Positions 7,391 to 22,116 of a stretch of DNA of 32,000 nucleotides are shown here, in pieces. The notes under the pieces were generated by a model. It was not told where the DNA came from. It saw only the letters and a list, made by a program, of their open reading frames with translations, and did no database searches. The position numbers and the translations under genes were made by a program. The first letter of the stretch is position 1. The number at the start of each line of letters is the position of its first letter. This stretch comes from Candidatus Saccharimonadota bacterium (lineage in GTDB: Bacteria > Patescibacteriota > Saccharimonadia > Saccharimonadales > Saccharimonadaceae): contig JBAQRV010000001.1 in the NCBI GenBank assembly GCA_049296095.1, positions 510,001 through 542,000 of the forward strand. Direction: 5' to 3'.

Positions 7391-7532
7391 TGCCCGTTAG
7401 AGCAAGCACAAGAGGTAATTGTCCAAATCCCATCAACCCTCAATCAAAAACAAAAACGACCTCCTATCACAGAGGTCGCTTCGACATAATTTCTTGGTAC
7501 AGCGTAGTGCAGGAAGTCAGAACAATTTTAGT
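7391..7532. repeat. Repeat unit copy 1, consisting of a tRNA-like 3' part, a terminator hairpin and a pseudo tRNA 3' half
   Basis: 7391-7501 aligns with 9362-9466. The right half ACCTCCT..CAGAGGTCG.TT.GACATAATTTCTTGGTACA is nearly identical and the left half is roughly 70%. 7485-7532 aligns with 6972-7015. Confidence 0.75.
7445..7478 (-). terminator. Duplicated copy of the tRNA-Arg downstream terminator
   Basis: Stem CGACCTC/GAGGTCG at 7457-7463 and 7472-7478, followed on the minus strand by TTTTTGTTTTTG. Confidence 0.5.
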
Positions 7533-7551
7533 CGAGTAGGAGTAGTCCGTA

Positions 7552-7580
7552 TTGACTTTTATGCACATATATGATAATGT
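7552..7580 (+). promoter_or_regulatory. Candidate promoter: TTGACT, 17 nt spacer, TGaTAATGT
   Basis: TTGACT at 7552-7557 and TG at 7572-7573. The 13-nt string GTATTGACTTTTA is shared with the promoter at 14541-14553. Confidence 0.4.
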
Positions 7581-7615
7581 TTCCCTATACTTATAAACAT
7601 TGCATAGAAGCATAA

Positions 7616-9112
7616 ATGACACAAAAAAATCCTATATTCAAAATCAATCCGACTAATCAGTCCCCGGGTGATCACGAAGAGAGCGCTTTCTATCAGAAGA
7701 CTCTAAAAGCCTTTGAAGACTTAGATTATTTTAAATCTCGACTTATCGGTCAAAGTCGTTTTTTACGTATAAACCCGGATCTGAAAAACGACATCTCTAA
7801 AGCGCTTGAATCAGACAATGATCAGGATATTGAGAACGTTCTTGAGCTTATTAATATTTCTCGCCATATTGACTCACCACAAAATGAAACTCCCTTTAAT
7901 AAAATTCTGGCGGCAATGAACCTCCAAGGTGAAATACTTTCCTTGTCACAAGAGGTGAAAGGAGTCGATGGTGATACAATGACGGTGGTTACGCTGGCAG
8001 ACTCCCTTTTTGAACGTATGAGTACCGAGCCAGATACAGAAGAACTTGAGAACTATTTTGATTCAGCGGTATTTATTTACAATCAGGTAAGACGAGTATC
8101 CGAAGATCTTAAGCAGACTGGTCGAGCGGGTGCAGATCAGATGACAAAATATGACTATATGAATAATCGTCTTATGGTTTACCTCACGGCGCTCAAGGAG
8201 CGTTTAGACATGAACGATTATCTTGGCTCTCTGCCAGAGAAAGACCCAGAGCCTATCACTCCTGAACAGGTTGCGTCTGATGACTTAGAGATTAAAGAGC
8301 TTTTTCAACAGGCTCGTGCAGCACAATCATATGGTGTAAAGCTGGGATACAAAGAGCAACTTTTCCGCCAAGGAAGCCTCTTATTCTTTCCTCCAAACAT
8401 AGGTATTGAAATGCTACAAAGCGCGACCGGTGAAATAATCGACGAATCTAACTCGCACAATCGTCGCATACATAAGGCAGCAAATCGCAGTCTCGCTGCT
8501 GTCATCGACTCGCCTAAGAAGTCCTATCACAAAGGAATTACTATGAAGGCGACGGTAAGTGACGATAACGATCTTAGCCTACAAACCAACGTCATTGAAC
8601 GCGCATCTTTCGAAATTCAGTCCGACGGTACATTAGCATCGGCGTATGGCGGACGCAATCTTGCTTTTGACGCGGCCAAACAAGGGAGCTATGGCTCTTT
8701 TCGAAAACTCCAGGCAGAAATACTCGCTAATTATATCGACCTTGTTTCGCCTCTAGAAATAACTAACACTCTCAATGGGGTCGAAGGCGCACCCGTATTG
8801 AATGGGGCACAAAGCGTAGAGACCAAAGACCCTGTAGACATTGTTCGTCAAATGCTAATTCGACGTATTAAGACGGCGAAAGAAATACCTTCAACAGACG
8901 AAAGTAGTGACGCCATACGAGAGGTGCGTCTTCACGGTGTAGTATGGCATATTCGCCAATTACCAAACGGCTGGAGTGCGTCACCTGATGCGCAAACTCT
9001 TGCCTATCAGGCGGGTATAGTGCTTCAACCAGGGGAAACGTTTGTCAGACCCCATAAGCGTGGATCGAAAAGGCTCGGTGAAGTAGTGGGTCATCAGCTA
9101 ATTAGTCGTTAA
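7616..9112 (+). CDS. hypothetical cytoplasmic protein, 498 aa, no recognisable domain
   Basis: Long uninterrupted ORF with a promoter-like element upstream. No signal peptide or transmembrane segment. Lower GC than its neighbours. Confidence 0.7.
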   Translation: MTQKNPIFKINPTNQSPGDHEESAFYQKTLKAFEDLDYFKSRLIGQSRFLRINPDLKNDISKALESDNDQDIENVLELINISRHIDSPQNETPFNKILAAMNLQGEILSLSQEVKGVDGDTMTVVTLADSLFERMSTEPDTEELENYFDSAVFIYNQVRRVSEDLKQTGRAGADQMTKYDYMNNRLMVYLTALKERLDMNDYLGSLPEKDPEPITPEQVASDDLEIKELFQQARAAQSYGVKLGYKEQLFRQGSLLFFPPNIGIEMLQSATGEIIDESNSHNRRIHKAANRSLAAVIDSPKKSYHKGITMKATVSDDNDLSLQTNVIERASFEIQSDGTLASAYGGRNLAFDAAKQGSYGSFRKLQAEILANYIDLVSPLEITNTLNGVEGAPVLNGAQSVETKDPVDIVRQMLIRRIKTAKEIPSTDESSDAIREVRLHGVVWHIRQLPNGWSASPDAQTLAYQAGIVLQPGETFVRPHKRGSKRLGEVVGHQLISR

Positions 9113-10302: not shown

Positions 10303-10395
10303 TGGCGGAGGAGGAGAGATTCGAACTCTCGCTCCAGGTTTCCCCAGACTAATGATTTAGCAAACCATCCCCTTCAGCCACTTGGGTACTCCTCC
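10303..10395 (-). tRNA. tRNA-Ser(GCU), class II, CCA encoded
   Basis: The reverse complement is GGAGGAGTACCCAAGTGGCTGAAGGGGATGGTTTGCTAAATCAT...GAGAGTTCGAATCTCTCCTCCTCCGCCA. Anticodon loop TTGCTAA and a long variable arm. Confidence 0.9.
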
Positions 10396-10480
10396 GTGTA
10401 TTTTTTGCTCTTTACGGGCAAACGGCTTTGGCAATTGTAGCATAAAACAGATACAGCGACTAGCTTCTGGGTCATAAATT

Positions 10481-10523: not shown

Positions 10524-10934
10524 ATGAGAGAGGTAATCAAGCGCATACAACCAGCACTTTTCGCACTTCTAGTCATCGTGCTTGCTTCGGTTGCTTTAAG
10601 TGTTGATGCTTCAGCCTTCAGTATTCAAGAGGGTGTCAACGCTGCTCGTGGCACCAACCAGCCCGCTGACTTGTTTGGCGCGGGCGGGGTCATCACCATC
10701 CTTACCAATACGTTGCTATTTATTGTCGGTGCCCTTAGCGTTGTTATGATCATCATTGGTGGGTTACGGTACGTCGTATCCGGCGGCAACTCAACAGCGG
10801 TTACAGCAGCTAAGAATACAATCCTCTATGCCGTCGTTGGTCTCGTGATTGCCTTCCTCGCTTTTGCTGCCATTAACTTCGTTATGAACACTATCGCCCC
10901 TGGAACCGGGGGTGCGGGCTACACCAACGTATAA
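10524..10934 (+). CDS. VirB2/TrbC-like T4SS pilin-family protein (paralog 1 of 6)
   Basis: 136 aa with a signal peptide (..VDASA), a variable segment, then TM1, the loop IIGGLRYVVSGGNSTAVTAAKNTILYAVVGLV, and TM2. The core is shared with five minus-strand paralogs. Confidence 0.8.
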   Translation: MREVIKRIQPALFALLVIVLASVALSVDASAFSIQEGVNAARGTNQPADLFGAGGVITILTNTLLFIVGALSVVMIIIGGLRYVVSGGNSTAVTAAKNTILYAVVGLVIAFLAFAAINFVMNTIAPGTGGAGYTNV

Positions 10935-10935
10935 C

Positions 10936-10960
10936 AAAACCCCTCAGAACGAGGGGTTTT
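10936..10960. terminator. Bidirectional terminator
   Basis: Perfect 10-bp stem AAAACCCCTC/GAGGGGTTTT with a 5-nt loop. It serves the pilin gene on the plus strand and tRNA-Ser(UGA) on the minus strand. Confidence 0.7.
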
Positions 10961-11098: not shown

Positions 11099-11785
11099 TC
11101 AGTCGAGAGGCTGACGCGCTAAAGCGGCTACCAAAATACGTTTTGCACCCGCCCGGGAAAGAAGCTGCGCAACCGCTTCAATCGTCGAACCCGTCGTCAC
11201 AACGTCATCAACAATCAAATAGATAGCCGTCGGATTAATACTCCCTTCGAGCCGAAAGGCAGATACTGCCTGTGCGAGCCGAACCGTACGTGTTGCCGAA
11301 TGCTGGGTTTTGCTATGGCGACGCTCCACTAAATGATGATCTACCCGAAGACGACGTCTATACCCAAGATGCTGCGCAATCAAGAGCGTATGATCATAGC
11401 CTCGCTCGCGTATATGCGACGGTGAGGTGGGTACTGGAATGATAATAATTCGGTCCGAGAGGGGAGGCAGGCGCGCATCGAGCAACTCTGCCAAGATGGA
11501 CGCGGAAGCCTTCATATTCTGGAACTTGTATCCTCCGATTAAACGTTGTAATACACCTTGACGTAAACCCACTATCCAGGTCTGAATATAGGCCGTCTGG
11601 TGACCAGGACAAATCCCTGCCTCTGAGGCCCTTTTGCACAGCAAACAACCATAAAATGGCTGGCTAATGATGTTGTATTTACAATCATCGCACAAAAGGC
11701 TACCAATTTTACCGCATCCTGAACAGAGGTGTGGAGCTACCACCGCTAGTACTGTGTCTATTATTGTGTTTTTTACGTTTCGCAT
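11099..11785 (-). CDS. comF: ComF-family protein (ComFC-like, phosphoribosyltransferase fold)
   Basis: 228 aa. N-terminal Cys4 zinc-finger pattern (CSGCG...CDDC...CLLC) and the PRT motif IYLIVDDVVTTGSTIE. Confidence 0.85.
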   Translation of the reverse strand: MRNVKNTIIDTVLAVVAPHLCSGCGKIGSLLCDDCKYNIISQPFYGCLLCKRASEAGICPGHQTAYIQTWIVGLRQGVLQRLIGGYKFQNMKASASILAELLDARLPPLSDRIIIIPVPTSPSHIRERGYDHTLLIAQHLGYRRRLRVDHHLVERRHSKTQHSATRTVRLAQAVSAFRLEGSINPTAIYLIVDDVVTTGSTIEAVAQLLSRAGAKRILVAALARQPLD

Positions 11786-11795
11786 GGTGAATCAG

Positions 11796-11824
11796 TTGCG
11801 CATACTGCATATGCCCGTTATAAT
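11796..11824 (+). promoter_or_regulatory. Promoter: TTGCGC, 17 nt spacer, TATAAT
   Basis: TTGCGC at 11796-11801 and TATAAT at 11819-11824, upstream of the hsp20 gene. Confidence 0.5.
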
Positions 11825-11870
11825 ACGAAAGACTATTTGTCAAATGAGCCTAGAGAAAGTGGAGGATATC

Positions 11871-12335
11871 ATGGCCCGCAAACAAAACGAAGATCTACTA
11901 ATTGAAGATGAGTTAGCTGCCGCTTTTTTGAGCGACGACGACCTATCAACGACTGACGCTCCGGCGCCAGCTGCGAATGACGACAACTGGGACGACAGTG
12001 AAGAAGAATTCCCTGGCCAACTAGCCGTTGATGTCTACGAAACTGACGACAAGTTAGTGGTGAAGGCACGTACAGCAGGCGTGAACAAGGAAGAACTAGA
12101 CGTTAGCATCAGCGACGGCATTCTTACTATCAGCGGTACCCTAAACAGCGGTGACGATACTGCTGCGACCAACTGGCACATCCAAGAATGTTATTGGGGT
12201 GAATTTAGCCGAACCCTCGCGTTGCCTGTCAGCGTGAAAGAGGATGAGGTTGAAGCCGTTCTAAAAGATGGCGTTCTAACCGTTACCTTCAACAAGATCA
12301 AACAAGAGCAAGCAAAGAAGATCCAAGTTCAATAA
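11871..12335 (+). CDS. Hsp20/alpha-crystallin small heat-shock protein
   Basis: 154 aa from MARKQNE, with ribosome-binding site GGAGGA 5 nt upstream. The alpha-crystallin domain reads DVYETDDKLVVKARTAGV.KEELDVSI.DGILTISG......F.R...LP..V....V.A.LKDGVLTV. The ORF-track start at 11667 is an upstream read-through. Confidence 0.9.
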   Translation: MARKQNEDLLIEDELAAAFLSDDDLSTTDAPAPAANDDNWDDSEEEFPGQLAVDVYETDDKLVVKARTAGVNKEELDVSISDGILTISGTLNSGDDTAATNWHIQECYWGEFSRTLALPVSVKEDEVEAVLKDGVLTVTFNKIKQEQAKKIQVQ

Positions 12336-12406: not shown

Positions 12407-12438
12407 AAAAAATCCCGGCACGATGTCCGGGATTTTTT
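12407..12438. terminator. Bidirectional terminator at the end of the pilin array
   Basis: 12-bp stem AAAAAATCCCGG/CCGGGATTTTTT with an 8-nt loop. Confidence 0.7.
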
Positions 12439-12454
12439 ATATAGAATTGTCTTA

Positions 12455-12865
12455 TCAGGCAGGAGTGATCGCGCCAAGTACCCAGTTGACGATCGCAAAG
12501 GCCAAGAAGGCAACCACGAGACCGATCAAGGCATACATAATTGTGTTCTTTGCCGCAGTCACGTTACCACTGTCACCAGCAGACGTCGTGTAGCGAATAC
12601 CGCCGATGATCAACATGATCACGCTAATCGCACCGATGACGAACAGGAGCACGTTCACGATAGTGGTAAAGATTGAACCTTCACCAAACAATGTCTGTGG
12701 TGTGTTCCCTGTATTACTACAGTCAATACCGCCCTGGACACCAGCACTTGGGTCACATGTTTGGGCAGAAACGCTCGACGCAACAAGCGGACTAAAGACA
12801 GCCGCAAGCGCAAAAACAGATCCGAGAATCACATTTTTGAGCGCACTTTTTGTTAATTTATTCAT
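12455..12865 (-). CDS. VirB2/TrbC-like pilin-family protein (paralog 2)
   Basis: 136 aa. Signal peptide ..SSVSAQ, a Cys pair (TCDPSAGVQGGIDC), and the core IIGGIRYTTSAGDSGNVTAAKNTIMYALIGLVVAFLAF. Confidence 0.8.
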   Translation of the reverse strand: MNKLTKSALKNVILGSVFALAAVFSPLVASSVSAQTCDPSAGVQGGIDCSNTGNTPQTLFGEGSIFTTIVNVLLFVIGAISVIMLIIGGIRYTTSAGDSGNVTAAKNTIMYALIGLVVAFLAFAIVNWVLGAITPA

Positions 12866-12896
12866 TTATTATTTCCTTTCTTAGAATCTACCGTTA

Positions 12897-12905
12897 GTTA
12901 TAGCA
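12897..12905 (-). promoter_or_regulatory. Internal extended -10-like element TGcTATAAC
   Basis: The reverse complement of 12897-12905 lies in the 73-nt gap between pilin paralogs 3 and 2. Ribosome-binding site AAAGGAAA. Confidence 0.35.
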
Positions 12906-12938
12906 GATTAGCTGATATTTGTTAAGAGGTTATTCGCT

Positions 12939-13313
12939 TTACAAGAGGGTACCAACCACCCAGTTGACGATCGCAAAGGCCAAGAAGGCAACCACCAAGC
13001 CAATCACCGCATACAGAATTGTATTCTTTGCTTTCGTAACCGCCCCAGAATCTCCTGCTGACGTAGCGTACATGATGCCGCCGATAATAATCATGACGAC
13101 CGAGATGATACCAACGACGAATAATAAGACGTTGATAACATTGGTAATGAGGCTATCGACCGTTTCGTTCTGGTTCTGACAGATCGTTGAGTCTTGGTTT
13201 TGACACGACTCCTCAATAGGGTTAACTGCACCCACAGATGCCACGGGTACCAATAGAACACCCACGCCCACAACGAGCGCGAGTGACATAATAATTTGCT
13301 TTAATCGTTTCAT
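12939..13313 (-). CDS. VirB2/TrbC-like pilin-family protein (paralog 3)
   Basis: 124 aa. Signal peptide ..ASVGA, a Cys pair (ESCQNQDSTIC), and the core IIGGIMYATSAGDSGAVTKAKNTILYAVIGLVVAFLAF. Confidence 0.8.
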   Translation of the reverse strand: MKRLKQIIMSLALVVGVGVLLVPVASVGAVNPIEESCQNQDSTICQNQNETVDSLITNVINVLLFVVGIISVVMIIIGGIMYATSAGDSGAVTKAKNTILYAVIGLVVAFLAFAIVNWVVGTLL

Positions 13314-13316
13314 TGT

Positions 13317-13607
13317 TTAAAACCTCCCAATGACAAAATTCGTAATAACAAAGGCCGAGAAAATAACTACTAAACCGACAATAGAGTAGAGGATCATGTT
13401 TTTTGCCTTCGTCACAGCACCGCTCTCTCCGCTCGATGTTGCGTACATGATACCTGCCACGATAATCACAATTACCGCAATGATGCCTGCGACGAAGTAG
13501 GCGAGATTGAGACCATTTTGGAGAAGCTCATCGCCAGTAAGGGTGGGGATGTTAACGTCCGTTCCGGGCGTTAGCTTTTGTGCAAACTGTAAAAGGTAAT
13601 ACATCAT
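13317..13607 (-). CDS. pilin-family paralog 4, lacking an N-terminal signal peptide
   Basis: 96 aa with the core VAGIMYATSSGESGAVTKAKNMILYSIVGLVVIF. No hydrophobic or basic leader. It is tightly packed, with 4-nt and 3-nt gaps to its neighbours. Confidence 0.7.
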   Translation of the reverse strand: MMYYLLQFAQKLTPGTDVNIPTLTGDELLQNGLNLAYFVAGIIAVIVIIVAGIMYATSSGESGAVTKAKNMILYSIVGLVVIFSAFVITNFVIGRF

Positions 13608-13611
13608 AGCT

Positions 13612-14070
13612 CTATCCTAATACCCTAAAGATCAAATTCAAAATCCCAATCGAGCCAAGCGCAATCGCAAGTCCGATGGTCGAGTTAATGATAGTTGTCC
13701 GTGCCTTCTCGATAACACTTGGGTTACTGCCATTTGTTAGGAAGAGAAAACCACCATACAAGATAAAGAACAGCGCCACATATCCCGCAATAATCATGCC
13801 CATTTCGATCACATTGAGGGCGATTTTCCAGATGAAGGCCGCCAGGCCACCCTCAACGTCCGCAGGAGATACAACCGCACAATTACCCGCACCATCCTTA
13901 ATGGCGAGACCACGAAACCAGACAGGCAGACCAAGAAGGGCGCGACTCTCACAATCAGGGGCAGGGGTGAATGCCGCATAAGTCGAGGCTGGTGTCGCAA
14001 TAACAGTAATAGGCGCGGCGGCAAAAACAGCAAAGGCGAGTGCGGTGAATAAAGTCTTTAATCGTTTCAT
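13612..14070 (-). CDS. divergent pilin-family paralog 5
   Basis: 152 aa. Signal peptide ..ASTYA, a Cys pair (PDC...GNC), and the core LYGGFLFLTNGSNPSVIEKARTTIINSTIGLAIAL. Confidence 0.7.
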   Translation of the reverse strand: MKRLKTLFTALAFAVFAAAPITVIATPASTYAAFTPAPDCESRALLGLPVWFRGLAIKDGAGNCAVVSPADVEGGLAAFIWKIALNVIEMGMIIAGYVALFFILYGGFLFLTNGSNPSVIEKARTTIINSTIGLAIALGSIGILNLIFRVLG

Positions 14071-14078
14071 ATCATTCC

Positions 14079-14474
14079 TTAGTTAAAGAGGCCACCCGGG
14101 ACCAAAAAGTTAAGTAGCGCATACATCCCGGCATAAGCGATGATACCGATGACGATATTCATGATAATACCCATGGCCTTCTTGACTTGCTCTGGGCTAC
14201 CCCCAGCCGAGATATACATAATAGATGCATAGACAATGCCACCGAGGGCGACAACCCCAATACCAGCGGTAAGGATATTGATCGCGAGAAGAAGGATGCC
14301 CCAAGCGCCAGTGTTTTCTACACCGCCGCCTTCGCCTGTCTGATCACAACTAATGATACTCGTTGTCACGCCACCACATTCAGCAGCAGAGGTAGAAGGA
14401 GCGACAAAGCCTATCAGTCCGACAACAAGCAATAGTCCGACGAAAAATAATTTTACTGTTTGTTTTAATCGCAT
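14079..14474 (-). CDS. divergent pilin-family paralog 6, the first gene of the minus-strand array
   Basis: 131 aa. Signal peptide ..STSAA, a Cys pair (ECGGVTTSIISC), and the core LGGIVYASIMYISAGGSPEQVKKAMGIIMNIVIGII. Confidence 0.7.
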   Translation of the reverse strand: MRLKQTVKLFFVGLLLVVGLIGFVAPSTSAAECGGVTTSIISCDQTGEGGGVENTGAWGILLLAINILTAGIGVVALGGIVYASIMYISAGGSPEQVKKAMGIIMNIVIGIIAYAGMYALLNFLVPGGLFN

Positions 14475-14542
14475 AGTTATCTATAAGATACGACAAAGTG
14501 GACGGTTGAGCAAGTTTTTCTGCATGGATAAGCACGAGGGTA

Positions 14543-14571
14543 TTGACTTTTAACGCTTCATAGTGTATAAA
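14543..14571 (+). promoter_or_regulatory. Candidate promoter of the T4SS-like operon: TTGACT, 17 nt spacer, TATAAA
   Basis: TTGACT at 14543-14548 and TATAAA at 14566-14571, in the divergent region between the pilin array and the 14632 gene. Confidence 0.45.
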
Positions 14572-14631
14572 TAAGCGTAAGTTAAAGATTCACGTAATTA
14601 TCCACATAAGTATAAGGAAACAGAATCACAT

Positions 14632-15477
14632 ATGAGTACTATCGATCGAGATCCAAAGGCAAATCAACCTCCAATCCAGGAAAGCCAGCTGCCTGATATC
14701 AACAACGTCTTACCGGAAGCCCCTGAAACACTCCAGACAACTCGTCGTGAAGTGAAAGAAGCTGGATCTAAAGAGAAGAAGAAATTTCCTTTAGGCGCTA
14801 AGATAACTGCTGGTATTGCAGGCCTCGCACTCATTGGTGGTGGTGTTGCATTAGTAGCCAATCAAGCACCTAAACAAGAACCAGTGGCAGAAGCGCCTGC
14901 AGACCCATCAAATCCAGATACGCCAGGCACTGGTGAACAAGGCGAGCTACTTCCAAATGAGATGGAGCTTGAGATTCCTGTCGGCTTAAGTGCCGAGCAG
15001 TTAGGTGAGACCTTTATTGATCGAGAGAATGCCTGGCTAAATGCGGGAACAGACAACCAAAAAATTCTTGATGATAGAACCGAAGCTGGATTAAACAATG
15101 TTTCTATGGGCGAGTTTGTAACTGACCTGGCAACAGAGTTTGCGCCATCATTCGCTAACGCCCTCTACGTTGACGATTGGCAGTCTCGATCTGATATCGT
15201 TGATCATCACTATAAGCCATTCATCGAACTTAATGCTGCTACCCTCGAACGCAACCTAAAGACTGGAGACTCAGCTTTTAGCGACGGCAAGGAGGCCTAC
15301 CACTATACACGCACCGTAGATGCTGTGCGTGAGATCTCGGCAGATGGTACCACCCGTGTTATTGAGATCGACCTAACTGACTCGAATGGTGTATCTGGAG
15401 TCTACACACTGACTTTCGTAAATATAGATGGAACCGAACGTATCGCAGCACTGAGTGTTACGATTGAATCACAGTGA
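14632..15477 (+). CDS. bitopic membrane protein, a VirB8-like candidate by topology only
   Basis: 281 aa: a charged N-terminal tail of about 55 aa, one transmembrane helix (ITAGIAGLALIGGGVALVA), a Pro-rich linker and a C-terminal globular domain of about 170 aa. Confidence 0.7.
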   Translation: MSTIDRDPKANQPPIQESQLPDINNVLPEAPETLQTTRREVKEAGSKEKKKFPLGAKITAGIAGLALIGGGVALVANQAPKQEPVAEAPADPSNPDTPGTGEQGELLPNEMELEIPVGLSAEQLGETFIDRENAWLNAGTDNQKILDDRTEAGLNNVSMGEFVTDLATEFAPSFANALYVDDWQSRSDIVDHHYKPFIELNAATLERNLKTGDSAFSDGKEAYHYTRTVDAVREISADGTTRVIEIDLTDSNGVSGVYTLTFVNIDGTERIAALSVTIESQ

Positions 15478-15593: not shown

Positions 15594-18419
15594 ATGGAAG
15601 CAGGCATGCAGTATCGCCATAATTTCAAACCAAAGCTTTCGAAAGTGTTATTGATATCACTAAAGGCACGTCTGTTCAGGACCTGCTTTTCCCTGTTTCG
15701 CAAGCCAATTAAGCTAGTCGCACTCCTAGCACTAGTCGTGTCACTGGTTATTAGCCTTACTCCATTAGCCGTAAGTGCTCAGAAGGCAGTAGGTGGTGGC
15801 ACAAAGGGAGCTATAAAGACTTCATCATTACAACCGTCCGAACAAGCATCGGCGTTTGCTTATTTTAAAGCTCTTCGTTCTTGCATGACGCGCGAGTTCT
15901 CATACCAGAACGCTGGTGGCCTGGCGGCGCAAAACTCGATGAGCCAGCAGAACGCCATTAATTTTGAATGGTTTGATGGACTATGGTGGCAGGTAGGAGG
16001 CCAAATACCGACCACCCCAAATGCTGTTAATATCGGTGCTTTCAACGACCCACGAGGGCTAAACGGTGACGGCTCACAAAACTGCGGTGACAGCGAGGGT
16101 AAGGCCTGGATTGCGAAGGCGGCGGGCCTGTGGGGGTATGATGGCGTTACACTACTATGTGCTTTAGGGTTCACTCGTCAGAGTACCAGCACACCCTGTA
16201 CGGATACAACCGCAGGGGTTACTAATGATTTCTATGCACCGCCTGGACGAGCAGCTGCATTAGACGCACTATGGCAAAGTCCCTCCGGATTTGATAATTC
16301 TTCGCTGGGTATCGCAAGCATTACAGATACTGGGGGAGCTTACCGATTATACTTAGGTAATTTCATGACACAGTGTCGCCCATCCATAGGTGGTAATGCT
16401 TATACGATTCGTGAATATGACCAGACAAAAAAGGAGTGGTCAGATGTAAGGTATGGTGCGCCCGATCGTGATCGTGGAACAGGCTATAGCGTAACGGTCT
16501 GGGATCAACAGCAGATGACTTGTGCCGAACTCGCAGCGGCTATTGACAAAAATGATGATCCAGCGGTTCAAGGATACCAAGCATGGCTAGATAATAACAA
16601 TGGTGAAGAAACGGGCACTCCTGAATTTTGCGCCCAAAACCCGAGCGCTTGTCCAGACGACAACAACACAACCACGTGTGGCGTTGAGGGTATCGGCTGG
16701 ATCATTTGCCCCGTCTTTAATTTCCTGTCAGGCGTGGCCGATGGGACTTATGGTCTCATTGAGGGCTTTTTAGTTACCGACATTAGGGTCGTAGACACAA
16801 GTAGCGGCACCTACACTGCTTGGCAAGCTATGCGAAACTTTGCAAACGTTGGCTTTGTCATTATTTTCTTGATTATTGTATTCTCACAGCTAACAGGGGC
16901 GGGTATAACAAATTACGGGGTCAAAAAAATGCTTCCTCGACTAGTTGTCGCCGCAATTCTCGTCAATGTTTCATTCTTTATTACTCAGCTTGCAGTTGAT
17001 TTGTCTAACATCCTCGGGGGTAGTTTGAGAGATGCACTTGATTTGCCAGTGTTCGATACATTTGATGGTGGATTGGGCCAGGTGCTAGGACAGGGCAATA
17101 CGTTCACTGATGTTGCGAATGGTGTATTAGCAGCTCAGTTGGGGGCCGGGGCGGTCGCTGGAGCAGCTGTAGCGATCTACTTTGGTGGGATTGGATTACT
17201 TATACCAGTTATCTTAGCGGCTGTTGTTGCGGTTATTATGACACTGTTAATCCTTATTGCACGCCAAGCAATAGTTATTTTATTAATAGTCGTATCGCCA
17301 CTCGCATTCCTAGCAATGTTACTACCAAACACCGAAAATCTCTTCAAACAGTGGCGCAAGATTCTTGTTTCTATGCTCATACTGTATCCAGCTGTCGCAC
17401 TTCTGTTTGCCGGTTCACAGCTTGCAGCGGCAATTCTCATACAGTCACTCGCTGATGATAACGTGGTTGGTAAGCTCTCTGCACTTGCGGTGATGATACT
17501 TCCTCTTTTTGCGCTTCCTGCGATACTAAAGGGCTCTCTTAATGCAGTTCCAGCAATCGGTGGACTTGCTCAAAAATTGGCAAATGGCGCTATATCTGGT
17601 ACTCGCAAGGGAAGCGCACAGGCAACGAAAGCACTTGGTCAAAGAGCAGCAGCGGGTAATAGCAAGTTTGCACAATTTGCATCGCGCAGCTTATATGGTC
17701 GTAGTCGCGAGGGTCGAAACCGACAATCATCAGCACGACGCGCTTACGAAGAACCGAGGATTAAGGATATTCAAGATCGCTGGGCAGATCAGAAAATTCT
17801 CAATGACGCAGACGCGTTGATGGGAGTGGTGCAGGCAAAAGGTGCCAGCTCTATTGAAGGTAAGGCAGCCATTGGCCGACTTGCACAAATGGGCAGCACC
17901 GACCAACTTGTCAAGATTAGACGAAGTCATTTGAAAAACGCTACCGATGAAGCTTCTTACGATCGTGCAACTCGTGATTACTTCTCAACCCTAAAAGCAA
18001 AAGATATGCGCGCAGTATACCCATCATCAGCTCTATTCAGTAAAGACCCTGTTACAGGAAAAGAAAAGGGTAAGTGGTCTGAGGTTAAAGGAGTTGACCT
18101 GCACAATATGAGCGACGCAGCAATTGATGAAGGCTGGGCATCTGGAAGTAATAATTTCCGTTCAACACTGATGGAGGTTTTAACGGATCCTGAGCAATCA
18201 AAAAATATCAACAAGTCAATTCGAGAAAAATACGCACAGTACATGACGGTTGTAGGTGAACAGGCTCAATCCTCTTCTACCCAAGGAGGTAGTGCTACGC
18301 CGAATTCACCAGCATCTCCATTAGTACCCCCACCCGGAGCCGGTTCTGGCCCTGGTGGCCTTGTCGTTCCACACGACGATCCTAATAACCCTTTCTTTAG
18401 TGGAAGTCGTAAACCTTAA
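15594..18419 (+). CDS. polytopic membrane protein, VirB6/TrbL/PrgH-like T4SS channel subunit with a large ectodomain
   Basis: 941 aa: a signal-anchor, a Cys-rich ectodomain of about 300 aa, at least 6 transmembrane helices (AWQAMRNFANVGFVIIFLIIVF..., LVVAAILVNVSFFITQLAVD...) and a hydrophilic tail of about 290 aa. The start could be 15594 or 15606. Confidence 0.7.
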   Translation: MEAGMQYRHNFKPKLSKVLLISLKARLFRTCFSLFRKPIKLVALLALVVSLVISLTPLAVSAQKAVGGGTKGAIKTSSLQPSEQASAFAYFKALRSCMTREFSYQNAGGLAAQNSMSQQNAINFEWFDGLWWQVGGQIPTTPNAVNIGAFNDPRGLNGDGSQNCGDSEGKAWIAKAAGLWGYDGVTLLCALGFTRQSTSTPCTDTTAGVTNDFYAPPGRAAALDALWQSPSGFDNSSLGIASITDTGGAYRLYLGNFMTQCRPSIGGNAYTIREYDQTKKEWSDVRYGAPDRDRGTGYSVTVWDQQQMTCAELAAAIDKNDDPAVQGYQAWLDNNNGEETGTPEFCAQNPSACPDDNNTTTCGVEGIGWIICPVFNFLSGVADGTYGLIEGFLVTDIRVVDTSSGTYTAWQAMRNFANVGFVIIFLIIVFSQLTGAGITNYGVKKMLPRLVVAAILVNVSFFITQLAVDLSNILGGSLRDALDLPVFDTFDGGLGQVLGQGNTFTDVANGVLAAQLGAGAVAGAAVAIYFGGIGLLIPVILAAVVAVIMTLLILIARQAIVILLIVVSPLAFLAMLLPNTENLFKQWRKILVSMLILYPAVALLFAGSQLAAAILIQSLADDNVVGKLSALAVMILPLFALPAILKGSLNAVPAIGGLAQKLANGAISGTRKGSAQATKALGQRAAAGNSKFAQFASRSLYGRSREGRNRQSSARRAYEEPRIKDIQDRWADQKILNDADALMGVVQAKGASSIEGKAAIGRLAQMGSTDQLVKIRRSHLKNATDEASYDRATRDYFSTLKAKDMRAVYPSSALFSKDPVTGKEKGKWSEVKGVDLHNMSDAAIDEGWASGSNNFRSTLMEVLTDPEQSKNINKSIREKYAQYMTVVGEQAQSSSTQGGSATPNSPASPLVPPPGAGSGPGGLVVPHDDPNNPFFSGSRKP

Positions 18420-18439
18420 ACTGATATACTATAACCACA

Positions 18440-19357
18440 ATGGCAACCTATAAAGTACCCCAAGACGTCGAGGCGGATGACAAGCTCATTGGTCCGTTTA
18501 GCTTTCGGCAATTCATTTATTTGATTATTGTTGCTTTGGCGGGGGCGTTAGCTTGGGGGTTGGCACAGGTGTTTATTGGGCTGGCGATTATTCCTTTGCC
18601 AATCATCCTTTTGTTTGGGGCGTTGGCATTGCCACTGCGCAAGGATCAGCCGATGGAGATTTACTTGGCGGCGATTGTGTCGTTTTACCTTAAGCCGCGT
18701 AAGCGCCTTTGGGATTCAGATGGTATCGAATCACTTATTGAAATTACTGTGCCGAAAACCGTTGAGGTGAAGCGGACGAAGGACATTACTCAGGCGGATG
18801 CCGAGCAGCGCTTTAGTTACCTGGCAAATATTGTCGATAGTCAAGGGTGGGCGATTCGCGGAGCAGGCATGCAGAGTCCTAATATTGCTATGAATAGTGA
18901 TGTTATTTTAGAAGCGCAAAGCGCACAGGATGTTCTGGATACTAGTAGTTCAGTCGGGCAAACATTCAATGCCATGATCGACAAAGAGGCCGAGCGGATG
19001 CGCCAGCAGGCGATTGATCGCATGCGCCAACCAGCTCCAACTCCTGCGCCAGCACCAATGGCAGCACCGGTCACACCTGATCCTGCCAATCCGTATAGCG
19101 CCTTTTCTTCGACACCATCGTACAACCCATATCCGACAGATATTCAGCAGGCGATGGTGCAACCAGTTAACGATCCGTCTCACCAATTTACTCCGCCCGC
19201 ACAAACAGCGCCAACCACTAGCGATAAACCGCTGTCAGCTGATATAATGAACCTTGCAAACAATGCTGATTTGTCTATTGAGACAATTGCCCATGAAGCT
19301 CATCGTCTTCAAGATAAAGAAGACATGAACGAAGAAGTGGTAATATCACTGCGATAA
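18440..19357 (+). CDS. PrgI-family / VirB3-like membrane protein with a Pro-rich C-terminal extension
   Basis: 305 aa. The N-terminus VPQDVEADDKLIGPFSFRQFIYLIIVALAGALAW plus a second transmembrane helix is the PrgI/TcpE/VirB3-type hairpin. The C-terminus is low-complexity and rich in Pro and Ala. Confidence 0.65.
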   Translation: MATYKVPQDVEADDKLIGPFSFRQFIYLIIVALAGALAWGLAQVFIGLAIIPLPIILLFGALALPLRKDQPMEIYLAAIVSFYLKPRKRLWDSDGIESLIEITVPKTVEVKRTKDITQADAEQRFSYLANIVDSQGWAIRGAGMQSPNIAMNSDVILEAQSAQDVLDTSSSVGQTFNAMIDKEAERMRQQAIDRMRQPAPTPAPAPMAAPVTPDPANPYSAFSSTPSYNPYPTDIQQAMVQPVNDPSHQFTPPAQTAPTTSDKPLSADIMNLANNADLSIETIAHEAHRLQDKEDMNEEVVISLR

Positions 19358-19387: not shown

Positions 19388-20257
19388 ATGCCGCCAAATA
19401 ATTCATTCTTCAGTCCACCCACACCTAGTGGGTCTCCCGTCCCTGCACCGGTCGCCCCGAATCCAGGGCTTACTCCTGTTGCCCCTACACCAGCGGCAGC
19501 GCCAACTATAGGATCAGGAAATGCACCAGCTCGGCCGACACCAAAAAATCCAAACTCTACTCAGAGTACTCTTCAGCTATCTGAAGTTCGCGACAATATG
19601 GTGATTATGATCGATGGTTCGTTCCGTGCGGTGATTTCATGTAAATCAATTAACTTCGACCTGATGAGCGACCGTGAGAGGGAAGGAGTTGAGTATAGCT
19701 ACCAGAACTTCCTCAACTCCCTTAACTTCCCTGTGCAGATCCTGGTACGTTCTCAGCGGGTTGATATTGGCCCGTATATCGACAAGCTTCTCGATCTGCG
19801 TCGGTCACAGGACAATATGCTCTTGGGGGTTCTCATGGATGATTACATCAACTTCATCGACTCGCTGTCCCAAGAGGCGAATATTATGGAGAAGTCTTTC
19901 TATATCGTCGTACCGTTCTTCCCACAAGGGGATGGTGCCAGTTTAGTTGAGCAGGGTAAAGGCTTCTTTGGCAAGCTATTTGCTCGGCCAAAAAATACGA
20001 TTACACGTATCGACACCGCCGCATACCAAAAAGCGAAAGAAGAAATTAAGAATCGAGTTGATGCAGTGATGGCGGGTATGTTCCAGATCGGTGTGCAGAG
20101 TGTCCAGCTCGACACAAAATCATTAGGTGAGCTGTATTACAACTTCTATAACCCAGACACAGCCGTCCGCCAGCCGCTCGGTGATTTTGAGAATACGACT
20201 GGTACATATGTAAAAAAGGCGCCAGCTGGAACGCAAGCGCCTGGAGGAGTGCTGTAA
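19388..20257 (+). CDS. soluble T4SS-associated protein, possibly a detached VirB4 N-terminal-like domain
   Basis: 289 aa: a Pro-rich N-terminus of about 60 aa, then MVIMIDGSFRAVISCKSINFDLMSDREREGVEYSYQNFLNSLNFPVQILV. The stop overlaps the VirB4 start (TAATG at 20254-20259). Confidence 0.6.
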   Translation: MPPNNSFFSPPTPSGSPVPAPVAPNPGLTPVAPTPAAAPTIGSGNAPARPTPKNPNSTQSTLQLSEVRDNMVIMIDGSFRAVISCKSINFDLMSDREREGVEYSYQNFLNSLNFPVQILVRSQRVDIGPYIDKLLDLRRSQDNMLLGVLMDDYINFIDSLSQEANIMEKSFYIVVPFFPQGDGASLVEQGKGFFGKLFARPKNTITRIDTAAYQKAKEEIKNRVDAVMAGMFQIGVQSVQLDTKSLGELYYNFYNPDTAVRQPLGDFENTTGTYVKKAPAGTQAPGGVL

Positions 20258-22116
20258 TGGCTCGTCAATCTGCCGTTGATGTCGCCGCTCAGCAACGAGC
20301 GCGCGAACAGGCTGAGGTTGAACAGGCCTTCTTAAAGGGCGTTTCGACACTTCGTGATCTGATTGCACCGAGTAGCATCGAGATTCATTCATCATATTTC
20401 CGTCTAGGTACAAAGTATGGTCGCACCCTCTACGTTTATGGGTATCCTCGTCAGATTTACACTGGTTGGCTCAGCTCACTGATTAATATTGATGAGGTGC
20501 TCGACGTCAGTATGTATGTCTACCCAGTCGATAGCCAGGTTGTCCTGACGAACTTGCGCAAAAAAGTGACTCAGCTCGAAGCGAGCACGTCGATCAATAA
20601 CGAAAAGGGGAAGACGCGTGACCCAGCACTCGAGGCGGCGATTAATGACGCTGAGGAACTGCGCGACCAACTACAACTCGGGGCTGAGCGATTCTTCCGT
20701 TTTGGTTTGTACGTGACTTTGTATGCGGACAGCCTCGATGAGCTCAACTTTGTGCAACACAAGATTGAAACGCTGTTTGGTCAGCAGTTGATTTTCAGCA
20801 AGGTAGCTTCATCCCAACAGGAACAGGGACTGAATAGTTCAATTCCTCAAATGACCGACCAATTGCAGATTCGTCGTAATATGAACACCGGCGCAATTAG
20901 CACCAGCTTCCCGTTCACTAGCGCTGACCTGACAGATAACTCCGGAATTCTCTATGGCATCAACATGCATAATAATGGTCTGGTTATTTTTGACCGTTTC
21001 AAACTTGAAAATGCCAACTTGGTTGTCTTTGCAAAATCAGGAGCAGGTAAGTCGTTTACAGTGAAGCTCGAGGCACTCCGTTCAATGATGCTGGGAAGTG
21101 AGATTATTATTATCGACCCAGAGAACGAGTATCAAAAGCTATCTGATGCGGTCGGTGGAAGTTATATTCGTCTCAGCCTCAACTCGAGTACCCGTATTAA
21201 TCCGTTTGATTTGCCGCGGGTGATTGATAGCGACGAGGCTGAGGATGCTCTGCGGGCAAACCTTGTGACATTACATGGTCTTTTCCGCCTGATGCTCGGC
21301 GGTACCCAGGTGGGTACAAATGGCGTCCCGATCTCTGCTTTAACTCCTGTTGAAGAGGCCGATCTCGACCAGGCGCTGATCGATACCTACGCCCGTGTTG
21401 GTATTACCAGTGACCCACTGACACACAACTCGCCACCGCCAACGATTAGTGACCTGTACGACACACTACTTCACATGGGTAATACTGGGCCACAGTTGGC
21501 ACAGCGTCTGCGCAAGTACACAACGGGTACTTTCGCTGGCATCTTTAGTCAGCAATCGAATATCGATATTAATAACCCGATGGTGGTGTTTAATATTCGT
21601 GACCTCGAAGATGAGCTTCGTCCAGTGGCGATGTATATTGTCCTGTCGCACATTTGGAATATCACAAGGTCACAACAAAAGAAGCGTATGTTAATTGTTG
21701 ATGAGGCCTGGCAATTGATGAAATACGATGACTCAGCTAACTTCTTGTTTAGCCTGGCCAAGCGGGCCCGTAAGTACGCCCTTGGATTGACGACTATCAC
21801 TCAAGACGTCGAAGACTTTATGAGTAGCAAGATGGGCCGCGCGATTGTTGCCAACAGTTCGATGCAATTGCTTTTGAAGCAATCTGCTAGTGCGGTTGAC
21901 GTTCTGTCAGACGTCTTCAAGCTCACCGAAGAAGAGAAAAAGCGTCTCGCTAATTTCCCAATTGGGCAGGGTCTCTTCTTTGCTGGGCAAAGTCACGTTC
22001 ATATTCAGATTCAAGCCAGCCCAACTGAACAGCAACTTATTACAACCAACCCGCAGTCGGCGATTCAGGCCGCACAGGCCGCCGAGCAGGCAGGCAACCC
22101 TCTTAATGGGGTATAA
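20257..22116 (+). CDS. virB4: VirB4-family T4SS ATPase (TrsE/PrgJ/TcpF-like)
   Basis: 619 aa. Walker A FAKSGAGKSF, Walker B MLIVDEAWQLM, and the Gram-positive VirB4 N-terminal pattern YGRTLYVYGYPRQIYTGWLSSL. Ribosome-binding site GGAGGAG. Confidence 0.92.
   Translation: MARQSAVDVAAQQRAREQAEVEQAFLKGVSTLRDLIAPSSIEIHSSYFRLGTKYGRTLYVYGYPRQIYTGWLSSLINIDEVLDVSMYVYPVDSQVVLTNLRKKVTQLEASTSINNEKGKTRDPALEAAINDAEELRDQLQLGAERFFRFGLYVTLYADSLDELNFVQHKIETLFGQQLIFSKVASSQQEQGLNSSIPQMTDQLQIRRNMNTGAISTSFPFTSADLTDNSGILYGINMHNNGLVIFDRFKLENANLVVFAKSGAGKSFTVKLEALRSMMLGSEIIIIDPENEYQKLSDAVGGSYIRLSLNSSTRINPFDLPRVIDSDEAEDALRANLVTLHGLFRLMLGGTQVGTNGVPISALTPVEEADLDQALIDTYARVGITSDPLTHNSPPPTISDLYDTLLHMGNTGPQLAQRLRKYTTGTFAGIFSQQSNIDINNPMVVFNIRDLEDELRPVAMYIVLSHIWNITRSQQKKRMLIVDEAWQLMKYDDSANFLFSLAKRARKYALGLTTITQDVEDFMSSKMGRAIVANSSMQLLLKQSASAVDVLSDVFKLTEEEKKRLANFPIGQGLFFAGQSHVHIQIQASPTEQQLITTNPQSAIQAAQAAEQAGNPLNGV

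Follow-up and report, generated by a model that had tools for sequence, protein, structure and literature searches.

A conserved, ordered set of VirB2-like pilin genes beside a Saccharimonadia bacterium's type IV secretion system

Introduction

The Saccharibacteria type IV secretion system (T4SS) is conserved across the group, is essential in the one species tested, and has a role that was described as completely unknown. Its oddest feature is an array of pilin genes. Here we analyze one such array, in a 32,000-nucleotide (nt) stretch of the genome of a Candidatus Saccharimonadota bacterium (GenBank assembly GCA_049296095.1, contig JBAQRV010000001.1, positions 510,001 to 542,000). We call this stretch the window, and positions are counted from its first nucleotide. 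It contains five VirB2-like pilin genes in tandem and a solitary sixth copy on the opposite strand. By comparing the locus with those of other Saccharimonadia, we find that each gene of the array has its own place and its own features across species.

Arrays of this type have been described before. McLean et al. 2020 (PMC7427843) reported a "Sec-secreted array" of 4-6 small proteins with signal peptides in strain TM7x, and interpreted these as effectors. Wang et al. 2023 (Cell; PMC10633639) studied Southlakia epibionticum ML1, in which SEML1_0014-0019 are six PF18895 genes (encoding 132, 185, 103, 126, 127 and 138 amino acids) and were all scored as essential. They are followed by hsp20, a comF-like gene, a transfer RNA gene (tRNA-Ser), and a solitary pilin gene on the opposite strand, SEML1_0024, which was scored as not essential (PMC10633639). 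In 383 Patescibacteria assemblies, Quinonero-Coronel et al. 2025 (Microb Genom; PMC12102498) found a total of 441 arrays, each with 2-11 pilin genes. According to their paper, the arrays are made of PF18895 or PF04956 genes near virB4, have a mean within-array identity of about 25%, and are common in Saccharimonadia; the authors also speculate about antigenic variation and host range (versatility towards host strains). A 2025 FEMS review highlights the pilin array as well.

The array in our window is one more member of this described type: it has five tandem PF18895 genes near virB4, the identity between them is low, and the region is syntenic with SEML1_0014-0024. An initial annotation of the region, which was made from the sequence alone, had assumed that T4SSs encode a single VirB2 and so overestimated the novelty of the locus, as there are published exceptions, including the Patescibacteria arrays. 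That annotation had offered the same antigenic and host-range speculation.

One of the closest known systems is that of ML1. Both organisms belong to the class Saccharimonadia and have a T4SS cluster close to the origin of replication (oriC). The gene order is the same in both (VirB4, PrgI, VirB6-like protein, a protein of about 280 amino acids, tandem PF18895 genes, hsp20, comF-like gene, tRNA-Ser, and the solitary pilin on the opposite strand), and the sizes are similar, down to a short third gene in the array (103 amino acids in ML1 and 96 in the window). ML1 differs in having six tandem genes instead of five (the extra one is of the slot 4/5 class, as defined below), a second VirB6-like gene (SEML1_0013) between the array and the homolog of SEML1_0012, and a glycosyltransferase (SEML1_0023) beside the solitary copy, which has no equivalent in the window. 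ML1 also has transposon sequencing (Tn-seq) data, while the window comes from a metagenome-assembled genome. The arrays of TM7x and other Patescibacteria likewise consist of small tandem pilin genes in a system that is often near dnaA, as in the window. The accessible parts of PMC12102498 and PMC7427843 treat the copies as variable paralogs or as effectors, whereas we find ordered positional orthologs.

Several VirB2 genes with divergent exposed parts are also found within one T4SS locus in Bartonella (TrwL of the Trw system) and in Anaplasma phagocytophilum. These are diderm systems of the MPF-T class in intracellular animal pathogens, and their copies are lineage-specific amplifications of one gene. 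In contrast, the copies in the window appear to be ancient, distinct and ordered classes that are conserved across a bacterial class. The paralogs of Bartonella and Anaplasma have been invoked for surface variation or for the range of host receptors (as cited in PMC12102498). Among monoderm systems, a preprint describes PrgF from Enterococcus pCF10 as a VirB2-like protein that is essential in a Gram-positive T4SS, which makes a monoderm origin of such proteins plausible. Like the window's genes, PrgF is a small two-helix VirB2-like protein in a monoderm T4SS (of the MPF-FATA type), and it works with a VirB6-like pentamer. The pCF10 system differs in having one VirB2-like gene on a conjugative element with a relaxase and a coupling protein; the window has six genes in a chromosomal system of a kind that is reported to lack a relaxase.

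Results

Six genes match one pilin family

We number the tandem genes as slots 1 to 5 in the order of transcription. The open reading frame (ORF) calls, with lengths in amino acids (aa), are:

14079 to 14474, minus strand: slot 1, pilin-like gene (131 aa)
13612 to 14070, minus strand: slot 2, pilin-like gene (152 aa)
13317 to 13607, minus strand: slot 3, short pilin-like gene (96 aa)
12939 to 13313, minus strand: slot 4, pilin gene (124 aa)
12455 to 12865, minus strand: slot 5, pilin gene, candidate major subunit (136 aa)
10524 to 10934, plus strand: solitary sixth pilin gene (136 aa)

All six ORFs are full-length with start codons and lie where the initial annotation had placed them. The gaps between successive genes, from slot 1 to slot 5, are 8, 4, 3 and 73 nt. 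The layout between the array and the solitary copy is also as first described: tRNA-Ser(tga), a gene for a ComF-like phosphoribosyltransferase, and hsp20. When every ORF of 45 aa or more in the 32-kb window was scanned with a hidden Markov model (HMM), no further pilin copies were found.

A Pfam profile search matched all six products to PF18895 (T4SS_pilin). Slot 5 (46.7 bits), slot 4 (44.4), slot 3 (44.0) and the solitary copy (31.7) are above the gathering cut-off of 26.6 bits; slot 2 (20.7) and slot 1 (20.5) are below it. When sets of orthologs were compared to the slot 5 family with hhalign, the probabilities were 98.2% for slot 1 and 99.3% for slot 2. Six matches to one family inside 4 kb are not chance. 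Together with the adjoining T4SS genes, these matches bear out, at the level of the family, the initial description of the genes as VirB2-like pilin paralogs.

Slot 5 has 2,555 homologs, and PF18895 is carried by all 120 of the matches listed. Slot 4 is the only copy that also passes the cut-off for PF04956 (TrbC/VirB2; 28.5 bits versus 27.9). Slot 3 (26.7 bits) and slot 5 (19.9 bits) are below this cut-off, and the other three copies have no match listed at E ≤ 0.1. All six are weakly similar to NCBIfam NF045849 (slot 4 has 40.6 bits, with a cut-off of 40). This is the Mbov_0395 family, which includes pilin-like proteins from the integrative and conjugative elements of Mycoplasma. The six paralogs are 21-51% identical to each other, and 22-48% identical to the solitary copy. 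We think that the proteins are best filed under PF18895 and the Patescibacteria pilin-array type, and that they are VirB2-like by architecture and context.

The gene for the slot 4 protein lies on contig JBAQET010000001.1 of assembly GCA_049286885.1, and a tblastn search with this protein in 72,556 plasmids gave no match. The VirB6-like protein of the window is identical to one that is labelled as Candidatus Microsaccharimonas sp. (class Saccharimonadia; Patescibacteria, or candidate phyla radiation). The window is from a metagenome-assembled genome of this genus.

The array genes are positional orthologs across species

We fetched 80 loci from GTDB species representatives, anchored on an alignment of VirB6-like homologs, and searched them with an HMM built from the cores of the window's pilins. 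This gave 267 pilin ORFs in 47 of the 80 loci, or 48 loci with the window. The number of tandem copies in the 47 arrays is 3-7. The best match of slot 1 is slot 1 in 46 of the 47 other loci, and slot 2 matches slot 2 just as often (46/47). Slot 3 matches slot 3 in 32 of the 47 loci and position 2 in 12 others (this includes fused two-domain ORFs, discussed below). Slot 4 likewise matches the same slot in other loci, and slot 5 matches the last gene of the array in 39 of 47. A solitary plus-strand copy exists in 22 of the 47 loci, and it is the best match of our solitary copy in 21 of them. The order 1-2-3-4-5, with or without the solitary copy, is the commonest architecture and is kept almost everywhere. 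Extra copies occur only in the class formed by slot 4, slot 5 and the solitary copy.

The slots also differ in sequence features. (Signal peptides were assigned by a crude hydropathy rule, and the starts of ORFs in the other loci were set by a longest-ORF rule.) Slot 1 has a signal peptide, a cysteine (Cys) pair in the motif CGGV.TSII.C, two hydrophobic helices, and a C-terminal PGG.F; in its orthologs, A..CGGV.TSII.C and PGG.F are conserved. Slot 2 also has a signal peptide; its N-terminal segment is longer and carries the conserved pattern C...FLGFP.WYRGL......C, and exactly two Cys are present in 34 of 37 orthologs. Slot 3 has neither a signal peptide nor Cys: none of the 38 orthologs has a Cys and 33 of the 38 have no N-terminus that resembles a signal peptide. 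Slot 4 has a signal peptide and a C-x7-C pair. Slot 5 has a Cys-bounded hypervariable loop at its mature N-terminus and the most conserved core of all. The solitary copy in the window has no Cys pair, and among orthologs of slot 5 and of the solitary copy the pair is present in some species only.

What the six proteins have in common is a helix, a short lysine-rich loop and a second helix, which are found throughout their alignment (with five invariant columns). This much of the single architecture that was first proposed holds for all six; its signal peptide does not, as slot 3 lacks one. Similarly, the loop motif GG(I/L)xY..S.G(D/N/E)S..V..AKN, which had been described for all six copies, is strict in three or four of them; slots 1 and 2 depart from it. 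As first described, there are four Cys pairs (TCD..IDC, ESC..TIC, ECG..ISC and PDC..GNC). The length of the soluble segments is no more than about 24-46 aa.

Within a slot, orthologs are 50-67% identical in the two-helix core, whose length is almost constant, and 22-42% identical in the mature N-terminal segment, whose length varies. The contrast between a conserved core and variable N-terminal segments was thus correctly recognized at the outset. Among 50 close homologs of slot 5, the variation (with insertions and deletions) is concentrated in the Cys-bounded loop. The comparison that the initial annotation had suggested, of copy number and N-terminal diversity, does find both to vary, but slots 1-3 are fixed single-copy classes. 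Judging from the comparison across loci, the paralogs look like ancient, ordered and distinct subunit classes and not like interchangeable variants.

Slots 2 and 3 are fused in some loci

Slots 2 and 3 are joined in 10 of the 48 loci into a single in-frame ORF of about 230-255 aa, which contains two pilin domains and is equivalent to positions 13317-14070 of the window. These ORFs are all on the minus strand (coordinates are within each fetched locus):

7424 to 8173: slot 2+3 fusion in locus L004
6453 to 7169: slot 2+3 fusion in L005
3069 to 3779: slot 2+3 fusion in L016
6800 to 7507: slot 2+3 fusion in L023
5945 to 6634: slot 2+3 fusion in L046
7186 to 7917: slot 2+3 fusion in L048
2613 to 3338: slot 2+3 fusion in L050
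3648 to 4352: slot 2+3 fusion in L051
8734 to 9504: slot 2+3 fusion in L052
3250 to 3975: slot 2+3 fusion in L074

The loci with fused genes are scattered among unfused relatives, which suggests that the fusion arose repeatedly. It may account for the missing signal peptide of slot 3. From the fusion we also argue that, in the functional assembly, the slot 2 C-terminus and the slot 3 N-terminus would lie on one side and near each other.

Promoter-like motifs and the layout of expression

Across the loci, the median intergenic distance is -1 nt between slots 1 and 2, +1 nt between slots 2 and 3, 0 nt between slots 3 and 4, and 73 nt between slots 4 and 5. Because their ORFs overlap or abut, slots 1-4 are probably made together. 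A generic scan for promoters and terminators missed the conserved sites around the array owing to the C or A in last place of their -10 hexamers, and comparison across species recovered them. The candidate sites are:

14475 to 14513, minus strand: promoter-like region upstream of slot 1 (TTGCTC, 17 nt, TATCTT, then ATAGATAACT-ATG)
12898 to 12925, minus strand: promoter-like motif upstream of slot 5, conserved across species (TTAACA as the -35 box, 17 nt, and TGCTATAAC as an extended -10)
12407 to 12432, minus strand: candidate terminator of the array, found by eye just past the stop codon of slot 5 (hairpin TCCCGG/CCGGGA with an 8-nt loop, followed by six T)
14543 to 14572, plus strand: promoter-like site that would serve the divergent T4SS genes of the plus strand (TTGACT, 17 nt, TATAAA, with TG before it)

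The consensus of the slot 5 motif in the spacer between slots 4 and 5 is CTTAACAAA-N11-13-CTGnTATAA(C/A), or a -35 box, a 17-nt spacer and an extended -10, and downstream of it is a conserved Shine-Dalgarno sequence (AAGAAAGGAA). The pattern TTAACA-N17-TGnTATAA(C/A) precedes 33 of 47 slot 5 genes (in the window and 32 other loci) and none of 186 genes from slots 1-4. It is also found before 5 of the 14 solitary-type genes that are located inside arrays. In 2.64 Mb of sequence the motif occurs 43 times, about 38 of them before pilin genes, and in the 32-kb window it occurs once (0.05 matches are expected). This distribution makes the motif a putative promoter for slot 5.

Upstream of slot 1, most of the loci compared have the pattern cTTGCnn-N17-TAT(T/C)TT-ATAGATAG..ATG. 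Slot 1 has no Shine-Dalgarno sequence and its ATG is about 10 nt past the -10 box, which suggests that its messenger RNA (mRNA) is leaderless or nearly so. Slots 2-5 each have an upstream Shine-Dalgarno sequence of the AGGA or GGAGG type. In the literature that we searched, we found no discussion of leaderless mRNA for Patescibacteria. The hairpin at 12407-12432 is absent from the output of the automated terminator scan; from its sequence, it is a probable intrinsic terminator of the array. The divergent site is a putative promoter as well, and its reverse complement (AAAAGTCAATA) is found in many loci.

Upstream of the solitary gene is an extended -10 of its own (TGCTACAAT; conserved as TGCTA(T/C)AAT), and the gene has a terminator-like hairpin at 10936-10960. 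A conserved extended -10 (TGCTACAAT, minus strand) is likewise found at the gene for tRNA-Ser(gct), which is upstream of the solitary pilin (10303-10440); this site is shared by many loci. These two sites suggest that extended -10 promoters could be the norm in this lineage. A preprint with RNA-seq data for TM7x reported that the last three genes of the array and the solitary virB2 go up together in stable symbiosis, which fits with more than one transcription unit and with several copies being expressed simultaneously.

Purifying selection and gene conversion

We compared the six genes to those of the closest relative, a Joint Genome Institute contig (L090) with an identical layout, using the Nei-Gojobori method. 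In all six, the proportion of nonsynonymous differences (pN) is far below the proportion of synonymous differences (pS). The ratio of nonsynonymous to synonymous rates (dN/dS) is about 0.09-0.19 for five copies, and dS is saturated for slot 2. So, all six copies are under purifying selection and none is decaying. Since dS is near or beyond saturation even for this relative, purifying selection is all that can be stated. For five copies, dN is 0.24-0.70 in the N-terminal segments and 0.03-0.17 in the cores. The solitary copy is the exception (0.10 in the N-terminal segment versus 0.15 in the core). Even within the N-terminal segments, pN is below pS.

The core of slot 5 is the most constrained: it is 93% identical to that of the closest relative, with dN of 0.034 and the lowest pS. 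This would suit the abundant subunit of a polymer. Its pS is 0.39 (12455-12865 versus 6221-6631 of L090), which compares to 0.67-0.86 for the other pilins and is also below that of neighboring genes. The low pS is compatible with the codon-usage constraint of a highly expressed gene, or with homogenization.

The longest exact match between copies is 38 nt (12 codons, VVAFLAFAIVNW), at 12959-12996 in slot 4 and 12480-12517 in slot 5. Outside of this stretch, synonymous sites are saturated between slots 4 and 5, so the match resembles a short tract left by gene conversion. Loci L019, L017, L069, L079 and L012 have comparable tracts (41-200 nt), within the slot 4/5/solitary class only. A search of the window for switching machinery found no invertible elements or long repeats, no silent-cassette structure, and no recombinase among the neighboring genes. 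The repeats that it did return are at the level expected of paralogs (a 199-nt stretch at 71% identity and an 82-nt inverted stretch at 74%).

Neighboring T4SS genes and surroundings

The array is head-to-head with these plus-strand genes:

14632 to 15477, plus strand: protein without a Pfam match (281 aa)
15594 to 18419, plus strand: polytopic membrane protein (941 aa), VirB6-like as judged from homologs and presumably the platform for assembly
18440 to 19357, plus strand: PrgI/VirB3-like protein (PF12666, 49.9 bits)
19388 to 20257, plus strand: TrsD/TraC-like protein (289 aa; PF26593 in a precomputed gene call, and a weak match to NCBIfam TrsD)
20257 to 22116, plus strand: VirB4-type ATPase (PF19044, TraG P-loop, 99 bits; also AAA_10 and DUF87)
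22128 to 26098, plus strand: two genes of the cluster, one of 896 aa without a Pfam match and one of 427 aa with a weak CHAP match (Pfam scan)

The homologs of VirB4, VirB6 and VirB3 are encoded with the pilins, all within 8 kb. The VirB6-like protein has no Pfam match itself, and many of its homologs carry PF19590 (which we take to be TrbL_3) or PF04610 (TrbL). By position and size, the 281-aa protein is the counterpart of SEML1_0012 (278 aa), which is NTF2-like by structure and is not essential (Wang et al. 2023, PMC10633639). The 427-aa CHAP protein is likely to be a VirB1-like cell-wall hydrolase; SEML1_0006 and SEML1_0007, which are the S. epibionticum counterparts of the 896-aa and 427-aa genes, are lysozyme-like and peptidase-like by structure (PMC10633639). 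Beyond the CHAP gene are recF, dnaN, dnaA and rnpA. Given the adjoining T4SS genes and then these origin-proximal genes, the array belongs to the chromosomal, origin-proximal, monoderm-type T4SS that is typical of the group.

An Rfam scan of the region found two tRNAs and nothing else. We considered the 498-aa neighbor at 7616-9112 as a counterpart of the glycosyltransferase of ML1 and ruled this out, as it is a soluble, unrelated protein. The longest ComF-like ORF (11099-11785, minus strand, 228 aa) has an N-terminal motif with four Cys that resembles a zinc finger, and it overlaps the longest hsp20 ORF (11667-12335, plus strand). The public calls are shorter (157 aa for the ComF-like protein, and 163 aa for hsp20, at 11844-12335), and the start of ComF may be under-called in the public record.

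Some of the best matches of the Saccharimonadia VirB6-like protein, at 33-47% identity over the best segment, are sequences from genomes labelled as Actinobacteria (Rhodoglobus, Leucobacter, Arthrobacter or Microbacterium). These sequences are L002, L003, L045 and L056, with a GC content of 57-62%, and the protein P0018, from a 4.6-Mb contig of Arthrobacter sp. CJ23. Actinobacteria is the phylum of the known hosts of Saccharibacteria. Beside the VirB6-like homologs of L002, L003, L045 and L056, we found no pilin genes with the HMM, and none with Pfam among the small ORFs of L045. These sequences could reflect mis-binning or an exchange of genes between host and epibiont.

Discussion

A proposed fixed set of pilin-like subunits

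We propose that the array encodes a fixed set of pilin-like proteins for a pilus or conduit that is assembled by the T4SS, with slot 5 as the major subunit, slots 1-4 as a co-produced minor module in which slots 2 and 3 act together, and the solitary copy as an accessory, slot-5-like protein. We would give this proposal a probability of roughly 60%. A fixed set is suggested by the positional orthology, by the kept order, and by the Cys, motif and signal-peptide status that is specific to each slot. Separate expression of slot 5 is suggested by the 73-nt spacer and by the promoter-like motif that is specific to this slot. The PF18895 matches, the modelled hairpin of slot 5 and the adjoining T4SS genes also speak for the proposal, as do the published essentiality scores of ML1 (array essential, solitary copy not), the joint rise of several copies in TM7x, and PrgF.

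From these features we infer how the system might work. Sec and signal peptidase would export every protein except slot 3, which would insert without a leader. Within the membrane, each protein would form a hairpin of two helices, its basic loop in the cytoplasm and its N-terminal segment pointing outward, with that segment usually stapled by one disulfide. The VirB4, VirB6-like and VirB3-like machinery would pull subunits from the membrane and polymerize them into a pilus-like conduit. Slot 5 would be the main polymerizing subunit, with a strong promoter of its own, the most constrained core, and a hypervariable Cys-bounded loop on the surface. Slots 1-4 would be made from the upstream, apparently leaderless transcript at a fixed stoichiometry and might act in priming, at the tip or at the base; slots 2 and 3 would operate as a single unit.

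Type IV pili and the pseudopili of type II secretion systems are built from one abundant subunit, which has its own expression signal, and from co-transcribed, low-abundance, non-redundant subunits for priming and capping. The layout of the array in the window matches these sets of major and minor pilins. This is a functional analogy only: those systems have another fold and another assembly machine, and we do not imply homology. Of the roles that the initial annotation had offered, major and minor pilins fit best, and those that involve variation are not supported.

The structure probably serves host contact or exchange in an epibiotic lifestyle and not conjugation, because the T4SS of Saccharibacteria was reported to have no recognizable relaxase (PMC10633639 and PMC12102498). 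A more specific form of the proposal is an obligately heteromeric VirB2-type structure, with slot 5 as the major polymer, slots 1-4 as a fixed module of minor pilins, and slots 2 and 3 as one four-helix unit. We put this form forward only tentatively, at somewhat worse than even odds. If it is true, it would mark the first time that dedicated minor pilins are known from a T4SS pilus or conduit; the structure would also be that of a monoderm, and epibiotic growth would depend on it.

Several results weigh against the proposal of a fixed pilin set. First, similarity to the solved pilins is hard to find. In the AlphaFold2 model of slot 5, there is a leader helix (residues 2-29), a short helix within the Cys loop, and a hairpin of helices 65-94 and 99-133, with a predicted local distance difference test score (pLDDT) of at least 90. 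When this model was compared to the PDB with Foldseek, there was no match at E ≤ 0.001. The top matches are generic helical hairpins (chemoreceptors and subunit c of ATP synthase), and the two-helix fold is too simple to discriminate. Sequence profile searches of the PDB, with slot 5 orthologs or with an alignment of 53 sequences from mixed slots, found no VirB2, TraA or TrbC. Comparing 53 Saccharimonadia pilins to eight annotated alphaproteobacterial VirB2 with hhalign gave a probability of just 10% (E = 0.003), with helix 1, loop and helix 2 aligned in register. (The eight sequences were taken from plasmids.) Because of this low probability, we do not claim homology to solved T-type or F-type pilins beyond the Pfam evidence. 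Second, in five of the six copies the N-terminal segments evolve 2-10 times faster than the cores, so there is some genuine diversification of the surface. Third, in the literature that we searched, no VirB2-type filament has been reported on any Patescibacterium, and the thin filaments of Mycosynbacter are unrelated Pam pili. Fourth, the essentiality of the upstream genes in Tn-seq experiments may be a polar effect on downstream genes. Finally, the assignment of major and minor roles draws on promoter motifs and constraint, so it should be seen as provisional.

Other explanations

The proteins might instead be membrane-resident parts of a channel: VirB2-like subunits of the translocon, or of a short conduit across the cell wall, that never form an extended pilus. 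That no VirB2-type filament is on record in Patescibacteria fits with this, as does PrgF, whose VirB2-like role in a Gram-positive system is supported so far by modelling and labelling only (preprint). Similarly, slot 3 lacks a signal peptide, and slots 2 and 3 can be one four-helix membrane protein. However, the strong promoter-like motif that is separate for slot 5 and the constraint on its codons suggest a polymer subunit at high abundance, and variable extracytoplasmic segments, if stapled by disulfides, suggest exposure to the outside. We consider this explanation to be unlikely, with the caveat that it overlaps with the proposal of a fixed pilin set and differs from it mainly in the length of the structure.

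We see a slightly smaller chance that the copies are alternative or switchable major pilins, that is, redundant variants through which the surface of the filament is mixed or can change, for a broad host range or for evasion, as the initial annotation had it. The divergence and varying length of the N-terminal segments among orthologs, the insertions and deletions in the slot 5 loop, the tandem copy number of 3-7 through duplication in the slot 4/5/solitary class, and the short gene-conversion tracts in that same class are all what this idea would predict, and Bartonella and Anaplasma provide a precedent (cited in PMC12102498). But each of slots 1, 2 and 3 is a positional ortholog in a single copy, with N-terminal motifs of its own that are conserved across 47 species, the packed ORFs of slots 1-4 are probably expressed together, and we found no inverted repeats, invertase or silent cassettes. 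Also, pN is below pS even in the N-terminal segments, and all six array genes of ML1 were scored as essential (PMC10633639). At most, switching may apply to the slot 4/5/solitary subfamily.

Lastly, it is very improbable that the array encodes Sec-secreted effectors or toxin subunits that are exported via the T4SS, as in the ptx/ptl locus (the reading of McLean et al. 2020, which the TM7x transcriptome preprint reused): five of the six copies do have signal peptides, and "putative effector genes" is the label in PMC7427843 and in the preprint, but every copy has two long hydrophobic helices after the N-terminal region and a match to a pilin family, the most conserved part is the membrane hairpin and not a soluble segment, and the soluble segments are short.

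Implications for the Saccharibacteria T4SS

In the literature that we searched, we found no description of the positional orthology, the putative slot 5 promoter, or the fusion of slots 2 and 3. These features add a constraint to models of the Saccharibacteria T4SS: the copies look like fixed, ordered and non-equivalent classes with a likely major subunit, and not like a variation cassette. They also make a model with major and minor pilins testable in S. epibionticum and in TM7x, both of which can be cultivated.

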